NCBI GenBank assembly: GCA_017536695.1
Contig: JAFXGX010000041.1
Location: 52,006 to 116,005 of the forward strand
Length of the DNA: 64,000 bases
Direction: 5' to 3'
From: Bacteroidaceae bacterium
Lineage (GTDB): Bacteria > Bacteroidota > Bacteroidia > Bacteroidales > Bacteroidaceae
Shown: positions 15,315 through 61,618 of the stretch, piece after piece
Layout of the letters: each line of letters begins with the position of its first letter
How positions within the stretch are numbered: the first letter of the stretch is position 1
The notes under the pieces: model-generated
The model's input: only the letters and a program-made list of their open reading frames with translations
Told to the model about the DNA's origin: nothing
The model's database searches: none
Position numbers and translations under genes: made by a program

Positions 15315-17375
15315 ATGAAGAAATTTTTACTTTCACTTTTCTGCCTCATTTTCATGGCAGTGACAGCGGGTGCCGAAACCTACACCCACACATTCAAGAG
15401 CGGTGAACTGACAACTGCCGGTGGTACCGTGACACTCAGCGACATCGAGTGGACTGCATCTTCTGCAACATACATCGGTTGGGACAACAACAATGGCAGA
15501 GGCATCCAATTGGGAAGCAAGAACACATTGAATCCAACTTACCAGCTCAGCACTTCTGCACTTGCAGGTTGCACCATCAGAAGCATCACGGTAAACAGCA
15601 GCATTGCATCCAACGGTGATGCCAAGTTGACAATATCTGTCGGCAGCCAGACATCGGAGGCATACACCTTGACGACATCGGATGCTGCATACACGTTCGA
15701 CTGTGAAGACACTACCGGCGATATCAGTATCAACTGGACTGCTACAGACCGTGCCTACTATGTAAAATCAATCACTATTGAATACACCCCCGATGCCGGT
15801 ACAGTAATAGTACCTACACCGGAGTTCAAGACCCCCGCAGTAATCTATGCCGACAAAGTCGAGAAGGTAACCGTGGAAACAGAGGACCAGAATGCGGTCA
15901 TTTACTACACCACGGACGGCACAGACCCGAGCTATGAGGATTATGTAAACGAGACAGGCAGCACCAAGTGCAGCAAATACTGGGTAATGTACTTCAACCT
16001 TACCGAGACCACGACCATCAAGGCTATCGCTGTAAAGGTTGACGGCGATGTAGCATTCAAGAGTGCAATCGCAGAGCAGACATATATCGTATCGCCAACT
16101 GTACCATATATTCCGGCCAAGGAAATTGTATCGGGCAACAGATATGCAATCGTTGCTGCCGACAGCGCCGCTACATACTTCTACGAGGAGGACACATACG
16201 GTTATCTGCCGACAAAGACAGCAACAGACGTGAACGGCAAGTACATTGCAACTGTAAAATGTGCAGGCTTCACACTCACATCTGTTGACGGAGGCTACAC
16301 CATACAGGATGAGCTCAACCGCTACGTTTACCACAAAGGAACAAACACAAGCTTCAACTTCACAGCAGAGAAACCTGCTGAAGGCGCAATATGGAGCATA
16401 AAGACAGATGCTGACGGCAATGCGACCATTACTTGTGACGGATACACAGTATACTACTCTACCAAATACAAATCATACGGTTGCTACCCCGCCGACAAGG
16501 TTACCGAGGAGCACGTTCTTCCAAAGCTGTTCATGCAGCGCGAATATCCGACATACACCGTGACTCCCGAGAACAATGCAACCATCGATAAACTTGATAA
16601 GATTATCATCACATGCGAGGAGGGTATTGCAGCGACAAAAGACCTTGTGATTAAGGCCGAAGGCAAGTCTGCAACATTCACAATCGAGCAGACCGACAGC
16701 AAGACACTGACCGTCACACCGTCATCGCCCATTACCACTGAGAACAACATGGATTTGAATATAAACATCACTGCCGGAGACATCATTCTTAATCCAGAGG
16801 TTATGAGCATGTCATTCCCTGTACCGACAAAGTATGGTGTACGCAAAATTGCAAAATACCTCCTCACCGGTAATGCACCTGCAGCAACGATAGAGAAGAT
16901 AACACCGGCAAACGGTTCAACAGTTGAAGAACTTTCACACTTTGTCTTCACATTCAGCTACTATGCCGGGCACAGCGATGATGCAAACCTGCAGCCAAGA
17001 CTATATGCCGAAGGCAAGGAGTGGACCTATGCCCTTGAGAAGACCATTGTGAACAGCGACGGCTCGAACATCGGAATGATGCAGGCAGCACTCAAGACCA
17101 CCGAACCATTAAAGGGCAACGGCACGTATTACCTTGAGATACCTACAGGCTATTTTACCGACGCCAACGGCAGGGCCGTAGAGGGCATTTCTCTCAAATA
17201 CACAGTAAAGAATGACAGCGGAGAGATTGCAGGCGTTGAGGATATCACAGCAGGCGAGAGTGGCAGGATTGAGATATTCACAGTAAACGGAACCAGAATC
17301 CTTGACAATGAGAACATAGAATCTCTTCCAAAAGGAATTTATATCATCGGCGGCAAAAAGACCTATATAAGATAA
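15315..17375 (+). CDS. Multi-domain secreted surface protein with a T9SS C-terminal sorting domain
   Basis: Signal peptide. A chitobiase/Fn3-associated-like module (AVIYYTTDGTDPS). Two Ig-like modules. The C-terminus GRIEIFTVNGTRILDNENIESLPKGIYIIGGKKTYIR is typical of Por/T9SS CTDs. Confidence 0.8.
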   Translation: MKKFLLSLFCLIFMAVTAGAETYTHTFKSGELTTAGGTVTLSDIEWTASSATYIGWDNNNGRGIQLGSKNTLNPTYQLSTSALAGCTIRSITVNSSIASNGDAKLTISVGSQTSEAYTLTTSDAAYTFDCEDTTGDISINWTATDRAYYVKSITIEYTPDAGTVIVPTPEFKTPAVIYADKVEKVTVETEDQNAVIYYTTDGTDPSYEDYVNETGSTKCSKYWVMYFNLTETTTIKAIAVKVDGDVAFKSAIAEQTYIVSPTVPYIPAKEIVSGNRYAIVAADSAATYFYEEDTYGYLPTKTATDVNGKYIATVKCAGFTLTSVDGGYTIQDELNRYVYHKGTNTSFNFTAEKPAEGAIWSIKTDADGNATITCDGYTVYYSTKYKSYGCYPADKVTEEHVLPKLFMQREYPTYTVTPENNATIDKLDKIIITCEEGIAATKDLVIKAEGKSATFTIEQTDSKTLTVTPSSPITTENNMDLNINITAGDIILNPEVMSMSFPVPTKYGVRKIAKYLLTGNAPAATIEKITPANGSTVEELSHFVFTFSYYAGHSDDANLQPRLYAEGKEWTYALEKTIVNSDGSNIGMMQAALKTTEPLKGNGTYYLEIPTGYFTDANGRAVEGISLKYTVKNDSGEIAGVEDITAGESGRIEIFTVNGTRILDNENIESLPKGIYIIGGKKTYIR

Positions 17376-55927: not shown

Positions 55928-56467
55928 TCAAAGGAACATTTCAGCCCATTTTTCAACCTTTTTCACAGAATCTTCCGATATCTTCCGCATGCTATCCACT
56001 ACCTGTTCGAATGTCCTGGGCTCGTGCAGAAACTTTGTCTTCGAAAAGAACTTGTCAGCAAAACATATCAGTTGCTCCTCAAGCGTCTCGGGGACAAAAT
56101 CCTTTACCGGGAGATTCCACCCGTTCCGCTCGATAACCTCCTTGGTAAGTCCGGTTCCCGTATGCCTCTCACACACCCTCGCATGGCGCTCAAGGCCAAT
56201 TGAGCGCAACAGTTCGGCACCCAGATAGCCATGACAAAGATACTCCTCTGACCCATAGCAATGTATACGCGGCGCATCGGTAAGAAAGATACCGATGTCA
56301 TGCAGCATCGCAGCCTCATAAATGAAAGCCTCATCAAGTTCAAGTTCGGGATGTTTCCTTGCCAAACCAAGAGCGAAATCCGCAACTGCCCTGGCATGAA
56401 CCATGTAAATATTTTTCAATTCATTTTCACAAGGGTAGTACCTGTCAATTATCTCCTTTACATTCAT
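55928..56467 (-). CDS. HD-domain metal-dependent phosphohydrolase
   Basis: 179 aa. AAMLHDIGIF (HD dyad) and CHGYLGAELL. Confidence 0.75.
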   Translation of the reverse strand: MNVKEIIDRYYPCENELKNIYMVHARAVADFALGLARKHPELELDEAFIYEAAMLHDIGIFLTDAPRIHCYGSEEYLCHGYLGAELLRSIGLERHARVCERHTGTGLTKEVIERNGWNLPVKDFVPETLEEQLICFADKFFSKTKFLHEPRTFEQVVDSMRKISEDSVKKVEKWAEMFL

Positions 56468-56497
56468 CGCGGAAATATTTGTTCATGTTATTTGTAG

Positions 56498-56505
56498 CGA
56501 AGATA
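56498..56505 (-). promoter_or_regulatory. -7 box variant TAtcTTCG (minus strand) for the HD hydrolase gene
   Basis: Plus strand reads cgaagata, 31 nt upstream of the ATG at 56467. Confidence 0.45.
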
Positions 56506-56621
56506 CTATTTTTAAGGTTCTGCGCAAAAGCCCACACCGAAGAAAAACCGCCTTTTGCCTACAAAAAGGACATTTTAACTATAATAAACATAAACAAATA
56601 GTCATTTATAAAACTTTTGTA

Positions 56622-56629
56622 TATTTTTG
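56622..56629 (+). promoter_or_regulatory. -7 box TAttTTTG for the VTC operon
   Basis: tatttttg lies 39 nt upstream of the ATG at 56668. Confidence 0.45.
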
Positions 56630-56632
56630 CAA

Positions 56633-56666
56633 ATAGATATATTTTTAAAATAGATATATTTTTAAA
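56633..56666 (+). repeat. Perfect 17-bp tandem direct repeat (atagatatatttttaaa x2) filling the VTC leader
   Basis: Read directly: 56633-56649 is identical to 56650-56666. It ends 1 nt before the ATG. Confidence 0.95.
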
Positions 56667-56667
56667 A

Positions 56668-57435
56668 ATGACAGAAAGAATTGCCGACAAAGCCCTACAG
56701 CTTCCCCCGATAACACTCGAAGAGATGTCGGGAATCAAGCTCATGAACAGGACCGACACAAAGTTTGTGGCCACCCTTGACCAGCTTGTCGCGTTCCTCA
56801 CAGCCGTCAAAGGAAAGTATTTCATTCAGCAGATTGGCGACAAACGCATCGCCGAGTATCACACCACCTATTTCGACACAGATGACTACGAGATGTACCG
56901 CATGCATCACGCAGGCCGTTGTGTCAGGGAAAAGATAAGGGTGCGCACATATCTTGACAACTATGACACTTTCCTCGAAGTAAAGAACAAGAACAACCAC
57001 GGGCGCACAAAGAAAAAACGCATTATCGTGGGTGGAGTACACACATTGCATTCCGAAAAGGAGAATGTAGTTCCTTTTCTGAGCAAGGTTGCATGGTACA
57101 GGCTCGAAGAGGTCTCGCCGGTCATCGAGAACTGGTTCAACCGCATAACGCTGGTCAACTACGGCAAGACAGAACGTCTTACCATTGACTTTAACCTCAG
57201 ATTCCACCACCTGAAGAGCGATGGGCGACACGAACTGAGGAGAGTGGCTATCATCGAGCTCAAACGTGACGGAAACGTCCCCTCCCCTGCGCTTGACCTG
57301 CTGCGCGAGACACGTATCAAGCGCTCAGGTTTCAGCAAGTACTGCATCGGCAGCGCTCTCACTCACAGTGGGCTGAAGCGCAACAACTTCAAGGAGAGAC
57401 TGATAATGATAAACAAAATGGAAAACAAACGATAA
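56668..57435 (+). CDS. Stand-alone VTC-domain protein (triphosphate-tunnel / polyphosphate-polymerase-like)
   Basis: Start at MTERIADK. MNRTDTKF, YHTTYFDT, REKIRVRTY, FLEVKNK, IIELKRD: the alternating basic/acidic beta-strand pattern of the VTC/CYTH tunnel. No TM segment. Confidence 0.75.
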   Translation: MTERIADKALQLPPITLEEMSGIKLMNRTDTKFVATLDQLVAFLTAVKGKYFIQQIGDKRIAEYHTTYFDTDDYEMYRMHHAGRCVREKIRVRTYLDNYDTFLEVKNKNNHGRTKKKRIIVGGVHTLHSEKENVVPFLSKVAWYRLEEVSPVIENWFNRITLVNYGKTERLTIDFNLRFHHLKSDGRHELRRVAIIELKRDGNVPSPALDLLRETRIKRSGFSKYCIGSALTHSGLKRNNFKERLIMINKMENKR

Positions 57436-57445
57436 AAAAACAATA

Positions 57446-58321
57446 ATGATGAGACTTCTAACTACCCTATTGCTATTCTGCATGTCATTCTCACTGCATG
57501 CACAGGATGTAACCACCGCAAACGAGCAGGCACAAGAAGCCGTTGCGATTGCCGGGAAAGTGAACGACAGCGCTTCGGAAACCACGAACATCTACATTGA
57601 CTATGACGAGGACAACGACTCCGGGTCAAACGAGAAGATGTCGGTTTCCGTAAAGGAGAAACGCCAGAGCGATGCATTCATCGACTTAGTGCATGTAAAG
57701 GAACTGCTGTTGGCATTCCTCATCAACCTTATTGCGATACTCATCATCGTGCGCGGACTCTACTACCCCAAGTGCAAACGTGGCGAGTTCTTTTTTACGT
57801 ACGTTCTCATTGCCATAAGCACCTTCATGCTCATCTACGTGCTCGGCGACGTCAAGCTCAAGGCAGGAATTGCATTGGGACTCTTTGCAATATTCAGCAT
57901 CATACGTTACCGCACCGAGCAGGTTGCAATCAGGGAGATGACCTATCTGTTCATCATCATCGCCTTGAGCGCCATCAACGGACTTACCGTGAGCGAGCTC
58001 AGCATTGGCGAGGTCATCATCATAAACATCCTTTTCATCGCGTCCATCTGGATTTGCGAGAGCAAGCTGCTCATCAGCCACTATTCATACAAGGTCATCA
58101 AGTATGATAACGTGAACCTCATCACTCCCGAGAAGCGCGAGGAGCTGATTGCCGACCTCGAGAAGCGCACCGGTCTCAAGATTGAGAAAGTAGAAGTGGG
58201 CAGCATAGACTTCCTAAAGGATGCGGCTATTGTCAAGATGTATTACAAGAGCAAATCAGCGAACAATTCAGTAGATACAACTTTAAAAGCACCAGTAGAT
58301 GAATACAAACTTAAAGACTAA
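57446..58321 (+). CDS. DUF4956-type multi-pass membrane protein with a signal peptide and an acidic N-terminal extension
   Basis: 291 aa. About 4-5 TM helices (LLAFLINLIAILIIVRGLYYP, FTYVLIAISTFMLIYVL, ALGLFAIFSIIRYRTE ...). From memory, DUF4956 genes usually sit directly downstream of VTC genes. Confidence 0.65.
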   Translation: MMRLLTTLLLFCMSFSLHAQDVTTANEQAQEAVAIAGKVNDSASETTNIYIDYDEDNDSGSNEKMSVSVKEKRQSDAFIDLVHVKELLLAFLINLIAILIIVRGLYYPKCKRGEFFFTYVLIAISTFMLIYVLGDVKLKAGIALGLFAIFSIIRYRTEQVAIREMTYLFIIIALSAINGLTVSELSIGEVIIINILFIASIWICESKLLISHYSYKVIKYDNVNLITPEKREELIADLEKRTGLKIEKVEVGSIDFLKDAAIVKMYYKSKSANNSVDTTLKAPVDEYKLKD

Positions 58322-59138
58322 GAAAAAACTGTTCGGATGCCTGCTTCTGGCAGCATTCATCCTTGCACCGGTTCTCGGTGCTAACGCACAGAACGAAGAC
58401 GATGAGTTCGGCGTGTGGACCACACTCGAGGCATCGAAAAAAATCAACAAGAAACTGAAGCTCGATTTTGAGGCCGAGTTACGTACCATTGAAGGAGTGG
58501 ACGACATTGACCGCGTATCGGTAGGCGCCGGAGCAAGCTACAAACTGGCAAAATGGTTGAAAGCAAGCGCCGGATACATATTCATATACAGCCATAGCCT
58601 CGACAGCAAGAGCATAAAAGATGTTCTTGATGAGGAGAATGGGTTATGTAACTACAACATAGACCATGCATACTGGACCGAGCGCCACCGTCTTCACGTC
58701 TCTTTGACCGGTGAATACAAGATTGGGCGCGTAGAGTTCTCATTACGCGAGCGTCTGCAGTACACCCGCACCAATTCCGCCACTACCGATGAGACAAAGT
58801 ACCGTTGGGAATACACAGACATTATTGAAGGCATTGGAGAATACACTTCAGTAACAGAGCCCGAACTCAAGGAGGCAAAGGAGAACACAACACTGCGTTC
58901 ACGTCTCAGTGCAAAATGGGATATACGCAACTGCAAGGTTACCCCATTCGCATCGGTTGAGCTATACACCCGTATCGACGATTGGAAAGGTTGCGACAAG
59001 ATGCGCTACCGCATAGGAGCAAGCTACAAGATAAACAAGGACAACGAGATTTCGCTATTCTATCTTTATCAGGATGCCAACGATGATGATGAACCAAAAG
59101 GACATGCCATAGGCATCGGCTATTCAATTGACCTTTAA
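58299..59138 (+). CDS. DUF2490-like predicted outer-membrane beta-barrel protein
   Basis: Signal peptide then alternating-hydrophobicity strands (FGVWTTLEASKKI, LDFEAELRT, VSVGAGASYKL, ASAGYIFIYS ... GIGYSIDL). Aromatic-rich C-terminal strand. 23-nt overlap with the preceding gene. Confidence 0.55.
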   Translation: MNTNLKTKKKLFGCLLLAAFILAPVLGANAQNEDDEFGVWTTLEASKKINKKLKLDFEAELRTIEGVDDIDRVSVGAGASYKLAKWLKASAGYIFIYSHSLDSKSIKDVLDEENGLCNYNIDHAYWTERHRLHVSLTGEYKIGRVEFSLRERLQYTRTNSATTDETKYRWEYTDIIEGIGEYTSVTEPELKEAKENTTLRSRLSAKWDIRNCKVTPFASVELYTRIDDWKGCDKMRYRIGASYKINKDNEISLFYLYQDANDDDEPKGHAIGIGYSIDL

Positions 59139-59143
59139 TTTAT

Positions 59144-59602
59144 ATGAAAAAGCTATTTACAATACTTTTTGTTCTTGCCTTTACATTGCCGGCTACAGCC
59201 CAGCAGATGATTATCGAGAAGAACGGCAGCAATAACGAGATTGTCAACCTTGAAAACCTCAAGCAGATAACATTCAGCGGCACGATAGTGAATGTTGAGC
59301 AGACCAACGGTGCAAAGAGCAGCACATCAATGTCTGCCATCAATGCAATAAGTTTCGGCGACTACACAAGCATCGGACAAGTAAGACCTGCCGACGGCGA
59401 ACTGGTAGCATACATCTCAAGCGATGAGATTGCCGTAAACTGCGAAGCCGGAAACCTTGTCACTATATATAATATTGTCGGCACACAGGTATTGAGCGTG
59501 CGCATCGGCGCCGACTACGGCAGCATAAGCATCGCCAACCTGCCCAAAGGCATATACATTGTAAAGGCCGGCAACAGAACCGCAAAAATTGTAAGACGAT
59601 GA
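59144..59602 (+). CDS. Mini T9SS cargo: a ~50-aa passenger plus a T9SS C-terminal sorting domain
   Basis: 152 aa. Signal peptide ...PATAQ. C-terminus LVTIYNIVGTQVLSVRIGADYGSISIANLPKGIYIVKAGNRTAKIV is a typical Por/T9SS CTD. Confidence 0.75.
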   Translation: MKKLFTILFVLAFTLPATAQQMIIEKNGSNNEIVNLENLKQITFSGTIVNVEQTNGAKSSTSMSAINAISFGDYTSIGQVRPADGELVAYISSDEIAVNCEAGNLVTIYNIVGTQVLSVRIGADYGSISIANLPKGIYIVKAGNRTAKIVRR

Positions 59603-61275
59603 GAAAGACATTACTCACAGCATGCCTGCTCATTGCCACATCAATGCAGGCACAGGTGCTGCACGTGAACAACAGCGACGGCACATATCAGGCCATAGAC
59701 ACCAAAAGCTGCGGCGACATCACATTCAATGAGGAGAAGCAGCTCATTAATATCGGCCTTGACAAGGAGAACAGCATTATCAGCCGTTTCTTCACAGGAA
59801 AGATAACGAATATAGCTCCGGCATCAAACCAAGGCAATGAGCTTACATACACACTCGCACCATCTGTTACCTTCGATGCAGCAGACAAGGAGAATTTCAA
59901 CGAAATTACTCAGGCTATCCCCACCGATGAACTTGATGAGGAATACGGCGACTTTATCGAGAACTACAGCACCGGGCGAATGGTCACAATAACCTTCAGC
60001 GAGAACGGAGTAAAAGCAAGCGGCCTCACTTCGGGCATTACAGCAACCACTGACGGTGGACACATTGTCATCAATTCCACTATAGGCAAAGTAGGTTACA
60101 TTGTAAAAGGAACCTGCAGCAACGGCTCGCTGAAGATATACAGCGAAAAGAAGTTCAGGATTGTGCTTAACGGTCTGAACCTCACCAACCCCGGCGGCCC
60201 CGCCATTAACATACAGAGCGGAAAGACCGTATACTTCTCCATTGCCGACGGAACCGTTAACACACTGTGCGACGGCGCCACATACGGCGCTCCCGCCTTG
60301 GCTGCCGACGGCACAGAGGAAGACCAGAAAGGTACTCTTTTCAGCGAGGGACAGATAATATTTGACGGATACAACAAAGGTACCGGCACACTCAATGTAA
60401 AGAGCCTTGGCGGCCATGCAATCTGTAGCGATGACTACATAAGGGTGCGTGGCGGCAACATCAATATCCTTGAGGCTGCCAAAGACGGGTTCCGCACAAA
60501 GGACAAGTTCATCATAGGCCGCACCGAGGCATATTCACCCGTAATCACCGTAAATGCAGCAGGCAACGGTATTGATTGCAGCGAAGGTACACTCACCGTT
60601 GAGGCCGGCAAACTAAGTATAAATTCTGTGGACGAAGGAATAAAGGTTGAATACGAAGAACTTGTACCCGACCCGGCAGTCATCCCTGACGCAAACATCA
60701 ATGGCGGTTACATAAACATCGTTACAACCGGCGAGAAGAGTTCAGCCATAAAGACCACCCGCAATTTCACACAGAGAGGCGGAACAATACACGCCGATGT
60801 AAAAGGCAACGGTTCCAAAATCATCAACTGCGACGGCGAGGTGCTCATTACAGACGGCAAACTGACAGGCCTTTCAAGCGGCACACTTGCTGCTGACACC
60901 ACGAGTGCGGGCGGCATCAAGAGCGAGGGCAACTGCACCATCAACGGCGGAAATATAGCCATAGAGTGCAATGGGTCATTCTCAAAGGGCATCAACTGCA
61001 ACAGCAATGTAATCATCAATGACGGTGATGTGACACTGCTCTCTACGGGCAGAATCGAGAACTATGACAAGCGCGGATATGCCATCACCACTCTCGGGCT
61101 GACCATAAACGGAGGCAAGCTTGTGACAAGCTCGTTCGATGAGTGCGTATCTGCGACTGCAGTCGGCATAAACGGCGGCATCTACCATGCCATAACGGAG
61201 AGCCGGACAACAGGTCTTGAAGATATAACGACACAGACCGGAGGCTGGCTGCTCTACCGCACAGGCGAGGAGTAA
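59599..61275 (+). CDS. Cthe_2159-like carbohydrate-binding right-handed beta-helix protein, secreted, without a T9SS CTD
   Basis: Signal peptide. FRIVLNGLNLTNPGGPAINIQSGK, GTLFSEGQIIFDG, HAICSDDYIRVRGGNINI and DGFRTKD are periodic beta-helix rungs matching my memory of that family. ATGA overlap with the preceding gene. Confidence 0.7.
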   Translation: MRKTLLTACLLIATSMQAQVLHVNNSDGTYQAIDTKSCGDITFNEEKQLINIGLDKENSIISRFFTGKITNIAPASNQGNELTYTLAPSVTFDAADKENFNEITQAIPTDELDEEYGDFIENYSTGRMVTITFSENGVKASGLTSGITATTDGGHIVINSTIGKVGYIVKGTCSNGSLKIYSEKKFRIVLNGLNLTNPGGPAINIQSGKTVYFSIADGTVNTLCDGATYGAPALAADGTEEDQKGTLFSEGQIIFDGYNKGTGTLNVKSLGGHAICSDDYIRVRGGNINILEAAKDGFRTKDKFIIGRTEAYSPVITVNAAGNGIDCSEGTLTVEAGKLSINSVDEGIKVEYEELVPDPAVIPDANINGGYINIVTTGEKSSAIKTTRNFTQRGGTIHADVKGNGSKIINCDGEVLITDGKLTGLSSGTLAADTTSAGGIKSEGNCTINGGNIAIECNGSFSKGINCNSNVIINDGDVTLLSTGRIENYDKRGYAITTLGLTINGGKLVTSSFDECVSATAVGINGGIYHAITESRTTGLEDITTQTGGWLLYRTGEE

Positions 61276-61287
61276 GCCACATAACGG

Positions 61288-61326
61288 TACACGAGAAGGG
61301 CGATGCCAAGCATCGCCCTTCTCGTG
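61288..61326 (+). terminator. Perfect 18-bp-stem hairpin ending the VTC operon
   Basis: acacgagaagggcgatgc caa gcatcgcccttctcgtgt. Confidence 0.8.
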
Positions 61327-61381: not shown

Positions 61382-61618
61382 TTACCTTCTTCTCTCCTCT
61401 TTCTTCTCGTTCATCTCCCTCTCACGTTCACGGCGCAGTTTCTCGCGTTTGCGCAACAGCACCCACAGAAGGGCGAGGACAGCCACCGAGACACCGCCGG
61501 TTACCCATTTTTCGGTAACAGACATCTCTGTGTTGCGGGGCATGAGTATTATATACATGACGGCCGTATATACGGCAAAAAGGGCAATGGTCACATTAGG
61601 GTTTCTGAAGAATCTCAT
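61382..61618 (-). CDS. Small membrane protein (2 TM) with an Arg/Glu/Lys-rich tail
   Basis: 78 aa. IALFAVYTAVMYIIL and VTGGVSVAVLALLWVLL, then RKREKLRREREREMNEKKEERRR. It has its own -7 box at 61655-61662. Confidence 0.55.
   Translation of the reverse strand: MRFFRNPNVTIALFAVYTAVMYIILMPRNTEMSVTEKWVTGGVSVAVLALLWVLLRKREKLRREREREMNEKKEERRR

Follow-up and report, generated by a model that had tools for sequence, protein, structure and literature searches.

A cluster of five genes lies in a 64,000-nucleotide stretch of DNA (called the window here, meaning this whole stretch) from a Bacteroidaceae bacterium (GenBank assembly GCA_017536695.1, contig JAFXGX010000041.1, positions 52,006 to 116,005 of the forward strand). 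The five open reading frames (ORFs), named ORF1 to ORF5, encode a VTC-domain protein, a DUF4956 membrane protein, a DUF2490 putative outer-membrane barrel, a small protein tagged for the type IX secretion system (T9SS) and a Cthe_2159-type beta-helix protein (Table 1). Read from ORF1 to ORF5, neighbouring genes leave a 10-nt gap, overlap by 23 nt, leave a 5-nt gap and overlap by 4 nt (ATGA). An original prediction, made from the letters of the window, had described five plus-strand ORFs with these coordinates and spacings, which were reproduced exactly, and the operon-like packing is as it described. The five families proposed there were recovered as well, every one above the curated Pfam gathering threshold.

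Table 1. Genes and control sites of the five-gene cluster, numbered from the first letter of the window.
Feature	Position	Strand	Family or remark
ORF1, VTC-domain protein, 255 aa	56668-57435	+	Pfam VTC
ORF2, DUF4956 inner-membrane protein, 291 aa	57446-58321	+	Pfam DUF4956
ORF3, DUF2490 putative outer-membrane beta-barrel, 279 aa	58299-59138	+	Pfam DUF2490
ORF4, mini T9SS-tagged protein, 152 aa	59144-59602	+	Por_Secre_tail, TIGR04183
ORF5, Cthe_2159-type right-handed beta-helix, 558 aa	59599-61275	+	Pfam Cthe_2159
HD gene	55928-56467	-	Pfam HD 3.1e-9; divergent, 200 bp from ORF1
-7 promoter box, Bacteroidetes-type, TATTTTTG (TAnnTTTG)	56622-56629	+	39 nt before the ORF1 ATG
Perfect hairpin, 21-bp stem, 3-nt loop	61286-61330	+	10 nt past the ORF5 stop

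An identical protein was found on a 117-kb metagenome scaffold, where the gene order is the same. A profile built from diverse DUF4956 sequences matched at least 597 GTDB species genomes. The best 80 loci were taken and joined with the window's own contig to give 81, and the content of each locus was defined by iterated profile searches of its ORFs with the window proteins. Nearly all of these best 80 came from Bacteroidota, including Bacteroidaceae/Prevotella, Muribaculaceae, Paludibacteraceae, Tannerella, Prolixibacteraceae, Rikenellaceae and Flavobacteriales. The VTC gene was located immediately upstream of DUF4956 on the same strand in 80/81 loci, and DUF2490 immediately downstream of DUF4956 in 75/81. 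Cthe_2159 was present in 38 of the 81, and the mini T9SS gene in 21 related loci, where it always stood between DUF2490 and Cthe_2159. The partners other than VTC all carried an export signal, and the flanking housekeeping genes were wholly different between lineages. The conserved unit is a VTC-DUF4956-DUF2490 trio with variable exported accessories. This bears out the synteny expected in the original prediction, the trio being near-universal in related Bacteroidota loci and the pair of mini T9SS protein and Cthe_2159 recurring as a unit; in locus L058 this pair was present twice.

The HD gene was kept in L001 to L006 only, which are the window's contig and its five closest relatives (6/81). 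The divergent gene exists in the orientation that had been predicted, and its place as a component of the system was rejected; it is a local neighbour. The absence of a CotH-type kinase was confirmed: the window has no CotH gene, 77 of the 80 related loci were also without one, and the other three (L012, L026, L073) had one directly upstream of VTC. Among the Bacteroidota CotH genes beside VTC, export signals were identified as a T9SS tail in L073 (4579-6132) and a lipobox in L086 (6001-11919). Further CotH genes by VTC were located in L012 (5445-7193) and L026 (5035-7080), the latter with an F5/8 type C domain.

Among cluster representatives, neighbouring genes of the cluster were sometimes joined in one predicted ORF. 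VTC and DUF4956 were joined in P0368 (L083, 6001-7452, one contig), DUF4956 and DUF2490 in P0245 (L084, 5001-6383, on two independent assemblies), P0344 and P0359, and DUF4956 and CotH in P0323 (L086, 6001-8016). Four CotH copies stood in a row in L086, one joined to DUF4956 and three as separate genes. The downstream halves of the DUF4956-DUF2490 and DUF4956-CotH ORFs kept their own Met, signal peptide, and AxA/Q site or lipobox. True domain fusion was rejected for these two types, which look like readthrough of abutting genes without a stop codon. Such readthrough ORFs pose no topological paradox and show very tight linkage.

Several other genes were seen beside the cluster in related loci. 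In Paludibacteraceae a DUF3413-sulfatase membrane protein was encoded directly after DUF2490 on the same strand (L043, 9340-11199, with equivalents in L048, L050, L052 and L056); it presumably resembles a phosphoethanolamine transferase or lipoteichoic acid synthase. In the Paludibacter, Prolixibacteraceae and Tannerella lineages two extra same-strand genes preceded VTC, in 13 loci each. One encodes a lipoprotein of some 350 aa whose repeats are CarboxypepD_reg-like (L078, 5711-6766), and the other a protein of some 164 aa that no Pfam family matched (L063, 2748-3242). Two-component systems adjoined the cluster in some related loci. Contigs labelled Lachnospiraceae, Oribacterium and Opitutae (L020, L069 and L042) carried the Bacteroidota-type cluster including DUF2490, with a lipoprotein-type Cthe_2159 in L020 and L069 and the pair of mini T9SS protein and Cthe_2159 in L042; they are probably mis-binned contigs.

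ORF1 consisted of the VTC domain alone (PF09359, 2.8e-29, scoring 102.8 bits where the cutoff is 23, with the match spanning the full model, 1-235). No signal peptide was present, and the protein was predicted to be soluble and cytoplasmic. Its AlphaFold2 model (predicted local distance difference test score, pLDDT, 93.1) was searched against PDB with Foldseek, and the best 13 matches were the tunnel domains of Vtc4, Vtc3 or Vtc2 (E 4e-13 to 2e-10, TM-score 0.59-0.66). The top entries were the Vtc4 catalytic domain (3g3r and 3g3q, E 4e-13, TM-score 0.6-0.65), while ygiF and CYTH enzymes were also significant matches, ranked below the Vtc proteins. In the model, the fold of ORF1 stands clearly closer to that of the Vtc4 polymerase than to those of other triphosphate-tunnel enzymes. 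Both the Pfam match and the Vtc4-like model confirm the predicted VTC triphosphate-tunnel identity, and relatives of ORF1 among Bacteroidaceae proteins from metagenome-assembled genomes are named 'polyphosphate polymerase domain-containing protein' at NCBI.

Searches of ORF1 against PDB sequences by phmmer and plain profiles gave nothing useful and did not reach the yeast proteins. For residue mapping, Vtc4 and Vtc3 fragments were recovered via a chimeric query and aligned with 36 bacterial sequences, and the profile was then run against PDB. The list of Vtc4 active-site residues was taken from a cryo-EM study (10.1101/2023.01.27.525886). K200, R264, R266, K281, R361 and R373 of Vtc4 corresponded to K32, R91, R93, K106, R159 and R170 of ORF1, and Y359 to F157. 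The equivalents of K200, R264, R266, K281 and R361, which make up five of the six basic triphosphate ligands, were invariant or nearly so in the 36 bacterial sequences. The mapping of the central region depends on the seeded Vtc4/Vtc3 fragments, and the K200 match is independent of them, its columns coming from bacterial sequences only. In addition, the invariant E197-x-K199 and S223-K224-Y225 of ORF1 are candidate equivalents of Vtc4 E426 and S457-K458, from order and spacing only.

For ORF2, the match to DUF4956 (PF16316) was 3.7e-56 (189.9 bits against a cutoff of 30.6), in a family of 1543 clusters at 50% identity. The core of its AlphaFold2 model had pLDDT >90. In the predicted layout, residues 1-80 comprise a signal peptide and an acidic stretch in the periplasm, and are followed by five transmembrane (TM) helices (81-205) and an ACT-like beta-alpha-beta-beta domain (214-267). 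The N-terminus would be outside and the KxKR loop, the RYRT motif and the C-terminal domain cytoplasmic, because of the positive-inside rule and the cleavable signal peptide of this clade. The invariant RYRT motif (154-157) thus falls on the cytoplasmic side by predicted topology, and the conserved basic residues of the family are all predicted to be cytoplasmic, namely the KxKR loop, RYRT, the IRE motif and the RTG motif in the ACT-like domain.

The unusual signal peptide and acidic extension noted on ORF2 in the original prediction were present, and they were clade-restricted: the signal peptide and the acidic DYDEDNDSGSNE run were confined to L001-L003, and other members had a shorter, signal-less, acidic N-terminal tail. 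In yeast, an acidic helix of Vtc4 plugs the channel mouth (10.1101/2023.01.27.525886). A possible analogy between this helix and the DYDEDNDSGSNE run (in the extension at 57446-57685) is pure speculation.

A split of catalytic and membrane parts into adjacent genes had also been proposed, and as homology this was wrong, as ORF2 had no significant match to the yeast VTC transmembrane domain and no SPX domain was present. ORF2 as a detached channel part of Vtc4 was ruled out by Foldseek, in which no likeness to that domain was found. Since DUF4956 and the yeast VTC channel share no fold likeness, the pairing is not a split Vtc4, and judging from the models it is at best analogous to Vtc4. Homology to MgtC was not detected. 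No match to Pfam MgtC was obtained among 44 DUF4956 sequences at E up to 1, hhalign of DUF4956 against E. coli YhiD gave a probability of 0.1% (a weak test with a single-sequence template), and no full-length MgtC structure was among the fold matches of ORF2.

ORF3 matched DUF2490 (PF10677) at 4.2e-33 (115.1 bits against a cutoff of 29.8), with sub-threshold matches to OMP_b-brl and porin models, and its signal peptide ended ANA/Q. DUF2490 is listed in the literature as a putative porin family (transporter classification 1.B.81). ORF4 was composed of a signal peptide, an N-terminal domain of about 60 aa and a T9SS type A C-terminal sorting domain. This tail passed Por_Secre_tail (PF18962) narrowly, with 28.0 bits where 27 is the cutoff, and it passed TIGR04183 with 31.2 against 23. 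ORF5 matched Cthe_2159 (PF14262) over residues 155-482 (1.9e-44, 152.3 bits against a cutoff of 25.8), and the solved Cthe_2159 structure 4peu/4phb at 1e-7 (4peu_A). Overall, the envelope location predicted earlier for each of the five products is supported by these signals and families.

ORF5 had a signal peptidase I (SPI) signal, MQA/Q, and an N-terminal domain in common with ORF4, without a lipobox and without a T9SS tail. Residues 1-80 of ORF4 were profile-homologous to residues 1-80 of ORF5 (59599-59840) with E 9e-15, and the N-domain of ORF4 was also homologous to the N-termini of Cthe_2159 proteins in other mini-bearing loci. The signal types were compared in 39 full-length Cthe_2159 neighbours. 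When the mini gene was adjacent, Cthe_2159 had an SPI signal and the shared N-domain and no lipobox (22/22). When there was no mini gene, it was a lipoprotein with an acidic stretch after the Cys, in 14/17 by a strict pattern and 16/17 by eye (Fisher's exact p = 4.5e-8, kinship ignored). We take this acidic stretch to resemble the surface-export signal of Bacteroidetes lipoproteins. No T9SS tail was found by Pfam scan in ten longer Cthe_2159 proteins.

The shared N-domain of ORF4 and ORF5 and the exclusive anchoring pattern are a new observation. Since the lipoprotein and mini-paired forms of Cthe_2159 are mutually exclusive, a sorting tail provided in trans is suggested, from co-occurrence alone: the beta-helix protein may be meant for the cell surface, with ORF4 supplying the T9SS sorting and anchoring signal by shared-domain pairing. 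Literature searches found no description of a trans-supplied T9SS sorting signal of this kind.

Three side observations concern these families. The Cthe_2159 protein of one relative bears a BACON domain. A partial ORF past Cthe_2159 in L035 (10853-11605) has dockerin-like repeats (DVNNDGEVNISDVN), unusual in a Bacteroidota bin. Elsewhere in the window, a 686-aa protein (15315-17375, plus strand) with a CHB_HEX_C_1 / Fn3-associated domain gave a weak C-terminal match to our own T9SS-tail profile, and no Pfam support for a tail was obtained.

The longest version of ORF1 opens at TTG 56617, and the ATG at 56668 gives 255 aa. The homologues are 254-255 aa at 100% coverage, so the ATG was preferred because the resulting length equals that of homologues aligning end to end. 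The TAnnTTTG box anticipated at 56622 is present, and the TAnnTTTG(CAAA) box is conserved upstream of orthologous genes, at the same position in L002, L004 and L005, and L006 has it with a single mismatch. Across the window 40 TAnnTTTG matches were counted against 34 expected, which is no enrichment, so the box is supported by position and conservation only. No RNA element was detected by an Rfam scan of the leader. A 17-nt tandem direct repeat (56625-56658, TTTTGCAAATAGATATA / TTTTTAAAATAGATATA) overlaps the -7 box shortly before the ORF1 start; its second copy was missing from orthologous leaders, so the repeat is not conserved.

The hairpin behind ORF5 exists as predicted, with a longer stem than the 18 bp given. 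It folded with -38.1 kcal/mol (z = -8.45), and none of 200 shuffles was as stable. No T-run follows it, so the classical intrinsic-terminator pattern is not matched, and judging from its sequence the hairpin is likely a transcription terminator or an RNA-stabilising end. No terminator-like site was found on the plus strand within the cluster. Past the hairpin, a 78-aa ORF (61382-61618, minus strand) was predicted to have two membrane helices; its tail is strongly charged, being rich in K, E and R, and all its Pfam matches were sub-threshold.

The best-supported mechanism for the cluster would be vectorial synthesis and export of polyphosphate, to which we give a probability of about 0.45, a little short of even, from sequences and models. 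Its basis is the family assignment of the proteins together with the fold, the majority of the catalytic residues, the topology as predicted, and synteny. The reported binding of a polyanion by Cthe_2159 and the secreted CotH that accompanies VTC-DUF4956 in Gram-positive bacteria also speak for it. Judging from its fold and conserved residues, cytoplasmic ORF1 would transfer the gamma-phosphate of ATP (or another nucleoside triphosphate, NTP) to a polyphosphate chain in its basic tunnel. ORF1 could then dock on the arginine-rich cytoplasmic face of a DUF4956 oligomer, which would move the growing polyanion through the inner membrane; docking and passage are proposed because of the obligate adjacency, the predicted topology and the rare fusion.

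In the same mechanism, the near-universal adjacency of DUF2490 suggests that the barrel would let the chain through the outer membrane, and at the surface the Cthe_2159 beta-helix may bind, hold or use the polymer. The beta-helix has no anchor of its own here, and the mutually exclusive pattern points to its being carried or tethered, probably by ORF4 with the shared N-domain and T9SS tail. In other lineages the surface partner would be a lipoprotein Cthe_2159 and/or a secreted CotH kinase as alternative users. Because the surface partners vary in this way, the common task of the VTC-DUF4956 pair is suggested to be the delivery of a phosphate polymer or phosphoryl donor beyond the cytoplasmic membrane.

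The cluster is classified here as a well-conserved system whose enzyme is already annotated, with a putative VTC-type polymerase that would be coupled to membrane passage. To our knowledge, bacterial polyphosphate has been attributed to the polyphosphate kinases PPK1 and PPK2 and regarded as intracellular. A third, PPK-independent route, composed of a Vtc4-like polymerase on a DUF4956 channel, a dedicated barrel and a surface beta-helix borrowing the T9SS tail of ORF4, in Bacteroidota and with other partners in Firmicutes and Actinobacteria, is a tentative and rather unlikely extension.

A number of points weigh against polyphosphate export. For the enzyme, Phe157 is nearly invariant in the bacterial family where Vtc4 has Tyr359, one of nine active-site residues differing, and the Y359F change lowers polyphosphate in yeast (10.1101/2023.01.27.525886). 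Vtc4 was not found with a profile of the C-terminal third of ORF1, so that E426 (the Mn2+ ligand), S457 and K458 had no aligned equivalents; K458 separates active Vtc4 from the inactive Vtc2 and Vtc3, which are without it (10.1101/2023.01.27.525886). Strand beta1 of ORF1 reads R-T-D-T-K with an invariant Asp30, where Vtc4 has Thr. CYTH hydrolases, as we take it, have Glu at this place, the second of their ExExK motif. A hydrolase-type metal site and hydrolytic chemistry in ORF1 are possible.

The membrane protein raises further objections to export. The Foldseek search of the ORF2 model against PDB gave no match with E <1e-3, only weak ACT- and dodecin-like matches to the C-terminal domain, and no solved transporter was resembled. 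The yeast VTC channel entries 7ytj and 8i6v were in the library yet not among the matches, and the model monomer had no obvious pore. ACT-like domains are typical of ligand-sensing regulators. The DUF4956-like homologue of S. intermedius has been described as MgtC-like with an ACT domain, MgtC being a regulatory membrane protein, and the sole reported genetic phenotype for relatives concerns Pel polysaccharide and not polyphosphate (PMC12345266). No paper reporting activity of a bacterial VTC protein was found in the literature, and the loci compared all come from one phylum and are phylogenetically non-independent.

Some of these points fit a regulatory or hydrolytic module instead, in which ORF1 would be a tunnel hydrolase or another enzyme consuming NTPs or triphosphates, DUF4956 an MgtC-like regulator with a ligand-sensing ACT domain, and no polymer would cross the membrane. 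The two proteins would adjust phosphate or cation homeostasis, or turn on the production or display of the co-encoded barrel and beta-helix adhesin. The invariant Asp30, at the position of the second Glu of ExExK in CYTH proteins, the Phe in place of Tyr359 and the significant fold matches to ygiF and CYTH proteins would suit such an enzyme. The five TM helices with an ACT-like domain and no transporter-like fold match, the MgtC-like description of the S. intermedius homologue (PMC12345266) and the two-component systems adjoining some related loci would suit such a regulator. However, fold and basic tunnel residues place ORF1 clearly closer to Vtc4 than to the hydrolases, and MgtC homology was undetected by Pfam or by hhalign against YhiD. 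Nor would a purely regulatory pair be expected to keep an outer-membrane barrel directly downstream in 75/81 loci, or to occur alongside exported partners in two phyla with different envelopes, and this module is considered unlikely.

An accessory role in modifying or assembling an exopolysaccharide is less likely again. Here VTC-DUF4956 would be a source of phosphoryl groups or of energy on the outer side of the membrane, for modification of glycans or surface proteins, with CotH kinases as users elsewhere and Cthe_2159-held carbohydrate here, and the output would be a modified exopolymer or adhesion and not free polyphosphate. It is favoured by the contiguity of cotH-VTC-DUF4956 with pel operons in Streptococcus and Clostridium (10.1101/768473), by the lowered Pel and aggregation of DUF4956-like and CotH mutants (PMC12345266) and by the export-signal CotH beside VTC in L012, L026, L073 and L086. 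The reported binding of cellulose and pectate by the polysaccharide-lyase-like Cthe_2159 beta-helix and the BACON domain of one relative point the same way. But no glycosyltransferase, polysaccharide synthase or Wzx/Wzy-type gene was found in the cluster or its recurrent neighbours, CotH is absent here and in 77/80 related loci, and the role overlaps with the export mechanism, since an exported phosphate donor would still be needed.

That the five genes are unrelated neighbours packed by genome compaction is extremely improbable: the promoter and terminator assignments are at consensus level only, but VTC, DUF4956 and DUF2490 retain their order and orientation in Bacteroidota families with entirely different flanks, the mini and Cthe_2159 genes are duplicated as a unit in L058, and adjacent members show predicted readthrough fusions and overlapping stop and start codons.

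If polyphosphate export is true, abundant Bacteroidota of gut and rumen would be able to bring polyphosphate, or a phosphoryl donor, to the cell exterior, with a bearing on how metals and phosphate are scavenged, on biofilm and adhesion, on signalling to the host by extracellular polyphosphate, and on the source of phosphate donor for secreted CotH-type kinases. In the PPK-independent extension with the borrowed T9SS tail, bacteria would have a secretion route devoted to an inorganic polymer, and T9SS a new way of recruiting cargo. B. thetaiotaomicron (BT3498-99), a tractable species, has the cluster, so the hypothesis is directly testable, and with the ORF4/ORF5 pair one can test whether a T9SS sorting signal comes from a separate small protein. 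In the Bacteroidota literature nothing was found on the VTC/DUF4956 pair beyond one transcriptome table, in which BT3498-99 are listed as DUF4956 and DUF2490. The earlier statement that no function had been shown for such pairs needs qualifying for S. intermedius SIR_1592-1594, where deleting the DUF4956-like gene or the CotH gene beside VTC lowers Pel polysaccharide and aggregation (PMC12345266).

Among known systems, the eukaryotic VTC complex (yeast Vtc4/Vtc3 or Vtc2/Vtc1) resembles the cluster in the tunnel fold of ORF1, with its Pfam VTC domain and Vtc4 as best PDB match, and in the residues K200, R264, R266, K281, R361 and R373, which ORF1 keeps. In both, the enzyme is obligatorily tied to a polytopic membrane protein with cytoplasmic basic residues, and those of DUF4956 parallel the rings of Lys and Arg around the yeast VTC channel mouth (10.1101/2023.01.27.525886). 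However, ORF1 is without an SPX domain, its catalytic domain is a separate soluble protein, and Tyr359 is replaced by Phe. DUF4956, with five TM helices and an ACT-like domain, bears no structural relation to the VTC transmembrane domain with its three helices, and the proposed destination is the bacterial envelope or surface instead of the vacuole lumen, with a barrel and surface proteins added.

In Gram-positive bacteria, an accessory group of cotH, VTC ('PPP'), DUF4956 and DUF4832 is contiguous with pel operons in Streptococcus and Clostridium (Whitfield et al., 10.1101/768473), S. intermedius SIR_1592-1594 being a case of it (PMC12345266). In the literature searched, the VTC/DUF4956 pair has otherwise been noticed only in a C. 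perfringens pathogenicity locus. The pel-adjacent group has the core pair of VTC and DUF4956 and exported partners in common with the cluster. CotH, DUF4832 and pel genes are absent here, whereas DUF2490, the T9SS mini protein and Cthe_2159 are present, fitting the diderm envelope of Bacteroidota. DUF4956 is also similar to MgtC/SapB in overall architecture, with five TM helices and an ACT-like C-terminal domain, but without detectable sequence or profile similarity.

Cthe_2159 of Clostridium thermocellum is a polysaccharide-lyase-like beta-helix that is reported to bind cellulose and polygalacturonic acid, a polyanion. ORF5 matches both this family and the solved protein through residues 155-482, but it begins with an additional domain of some 130 aa, partly common to ORF4, and it stands in a phosphate-enzyme operon and not in a cellulolytic context. 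ORF4 itself is like T9SS type A cargo in its C-terminal sorting domain, which is above both curated thresholds, but its passenger is only about 60 residues long and homologous to the neighbouring ORF5, itself tail-less.

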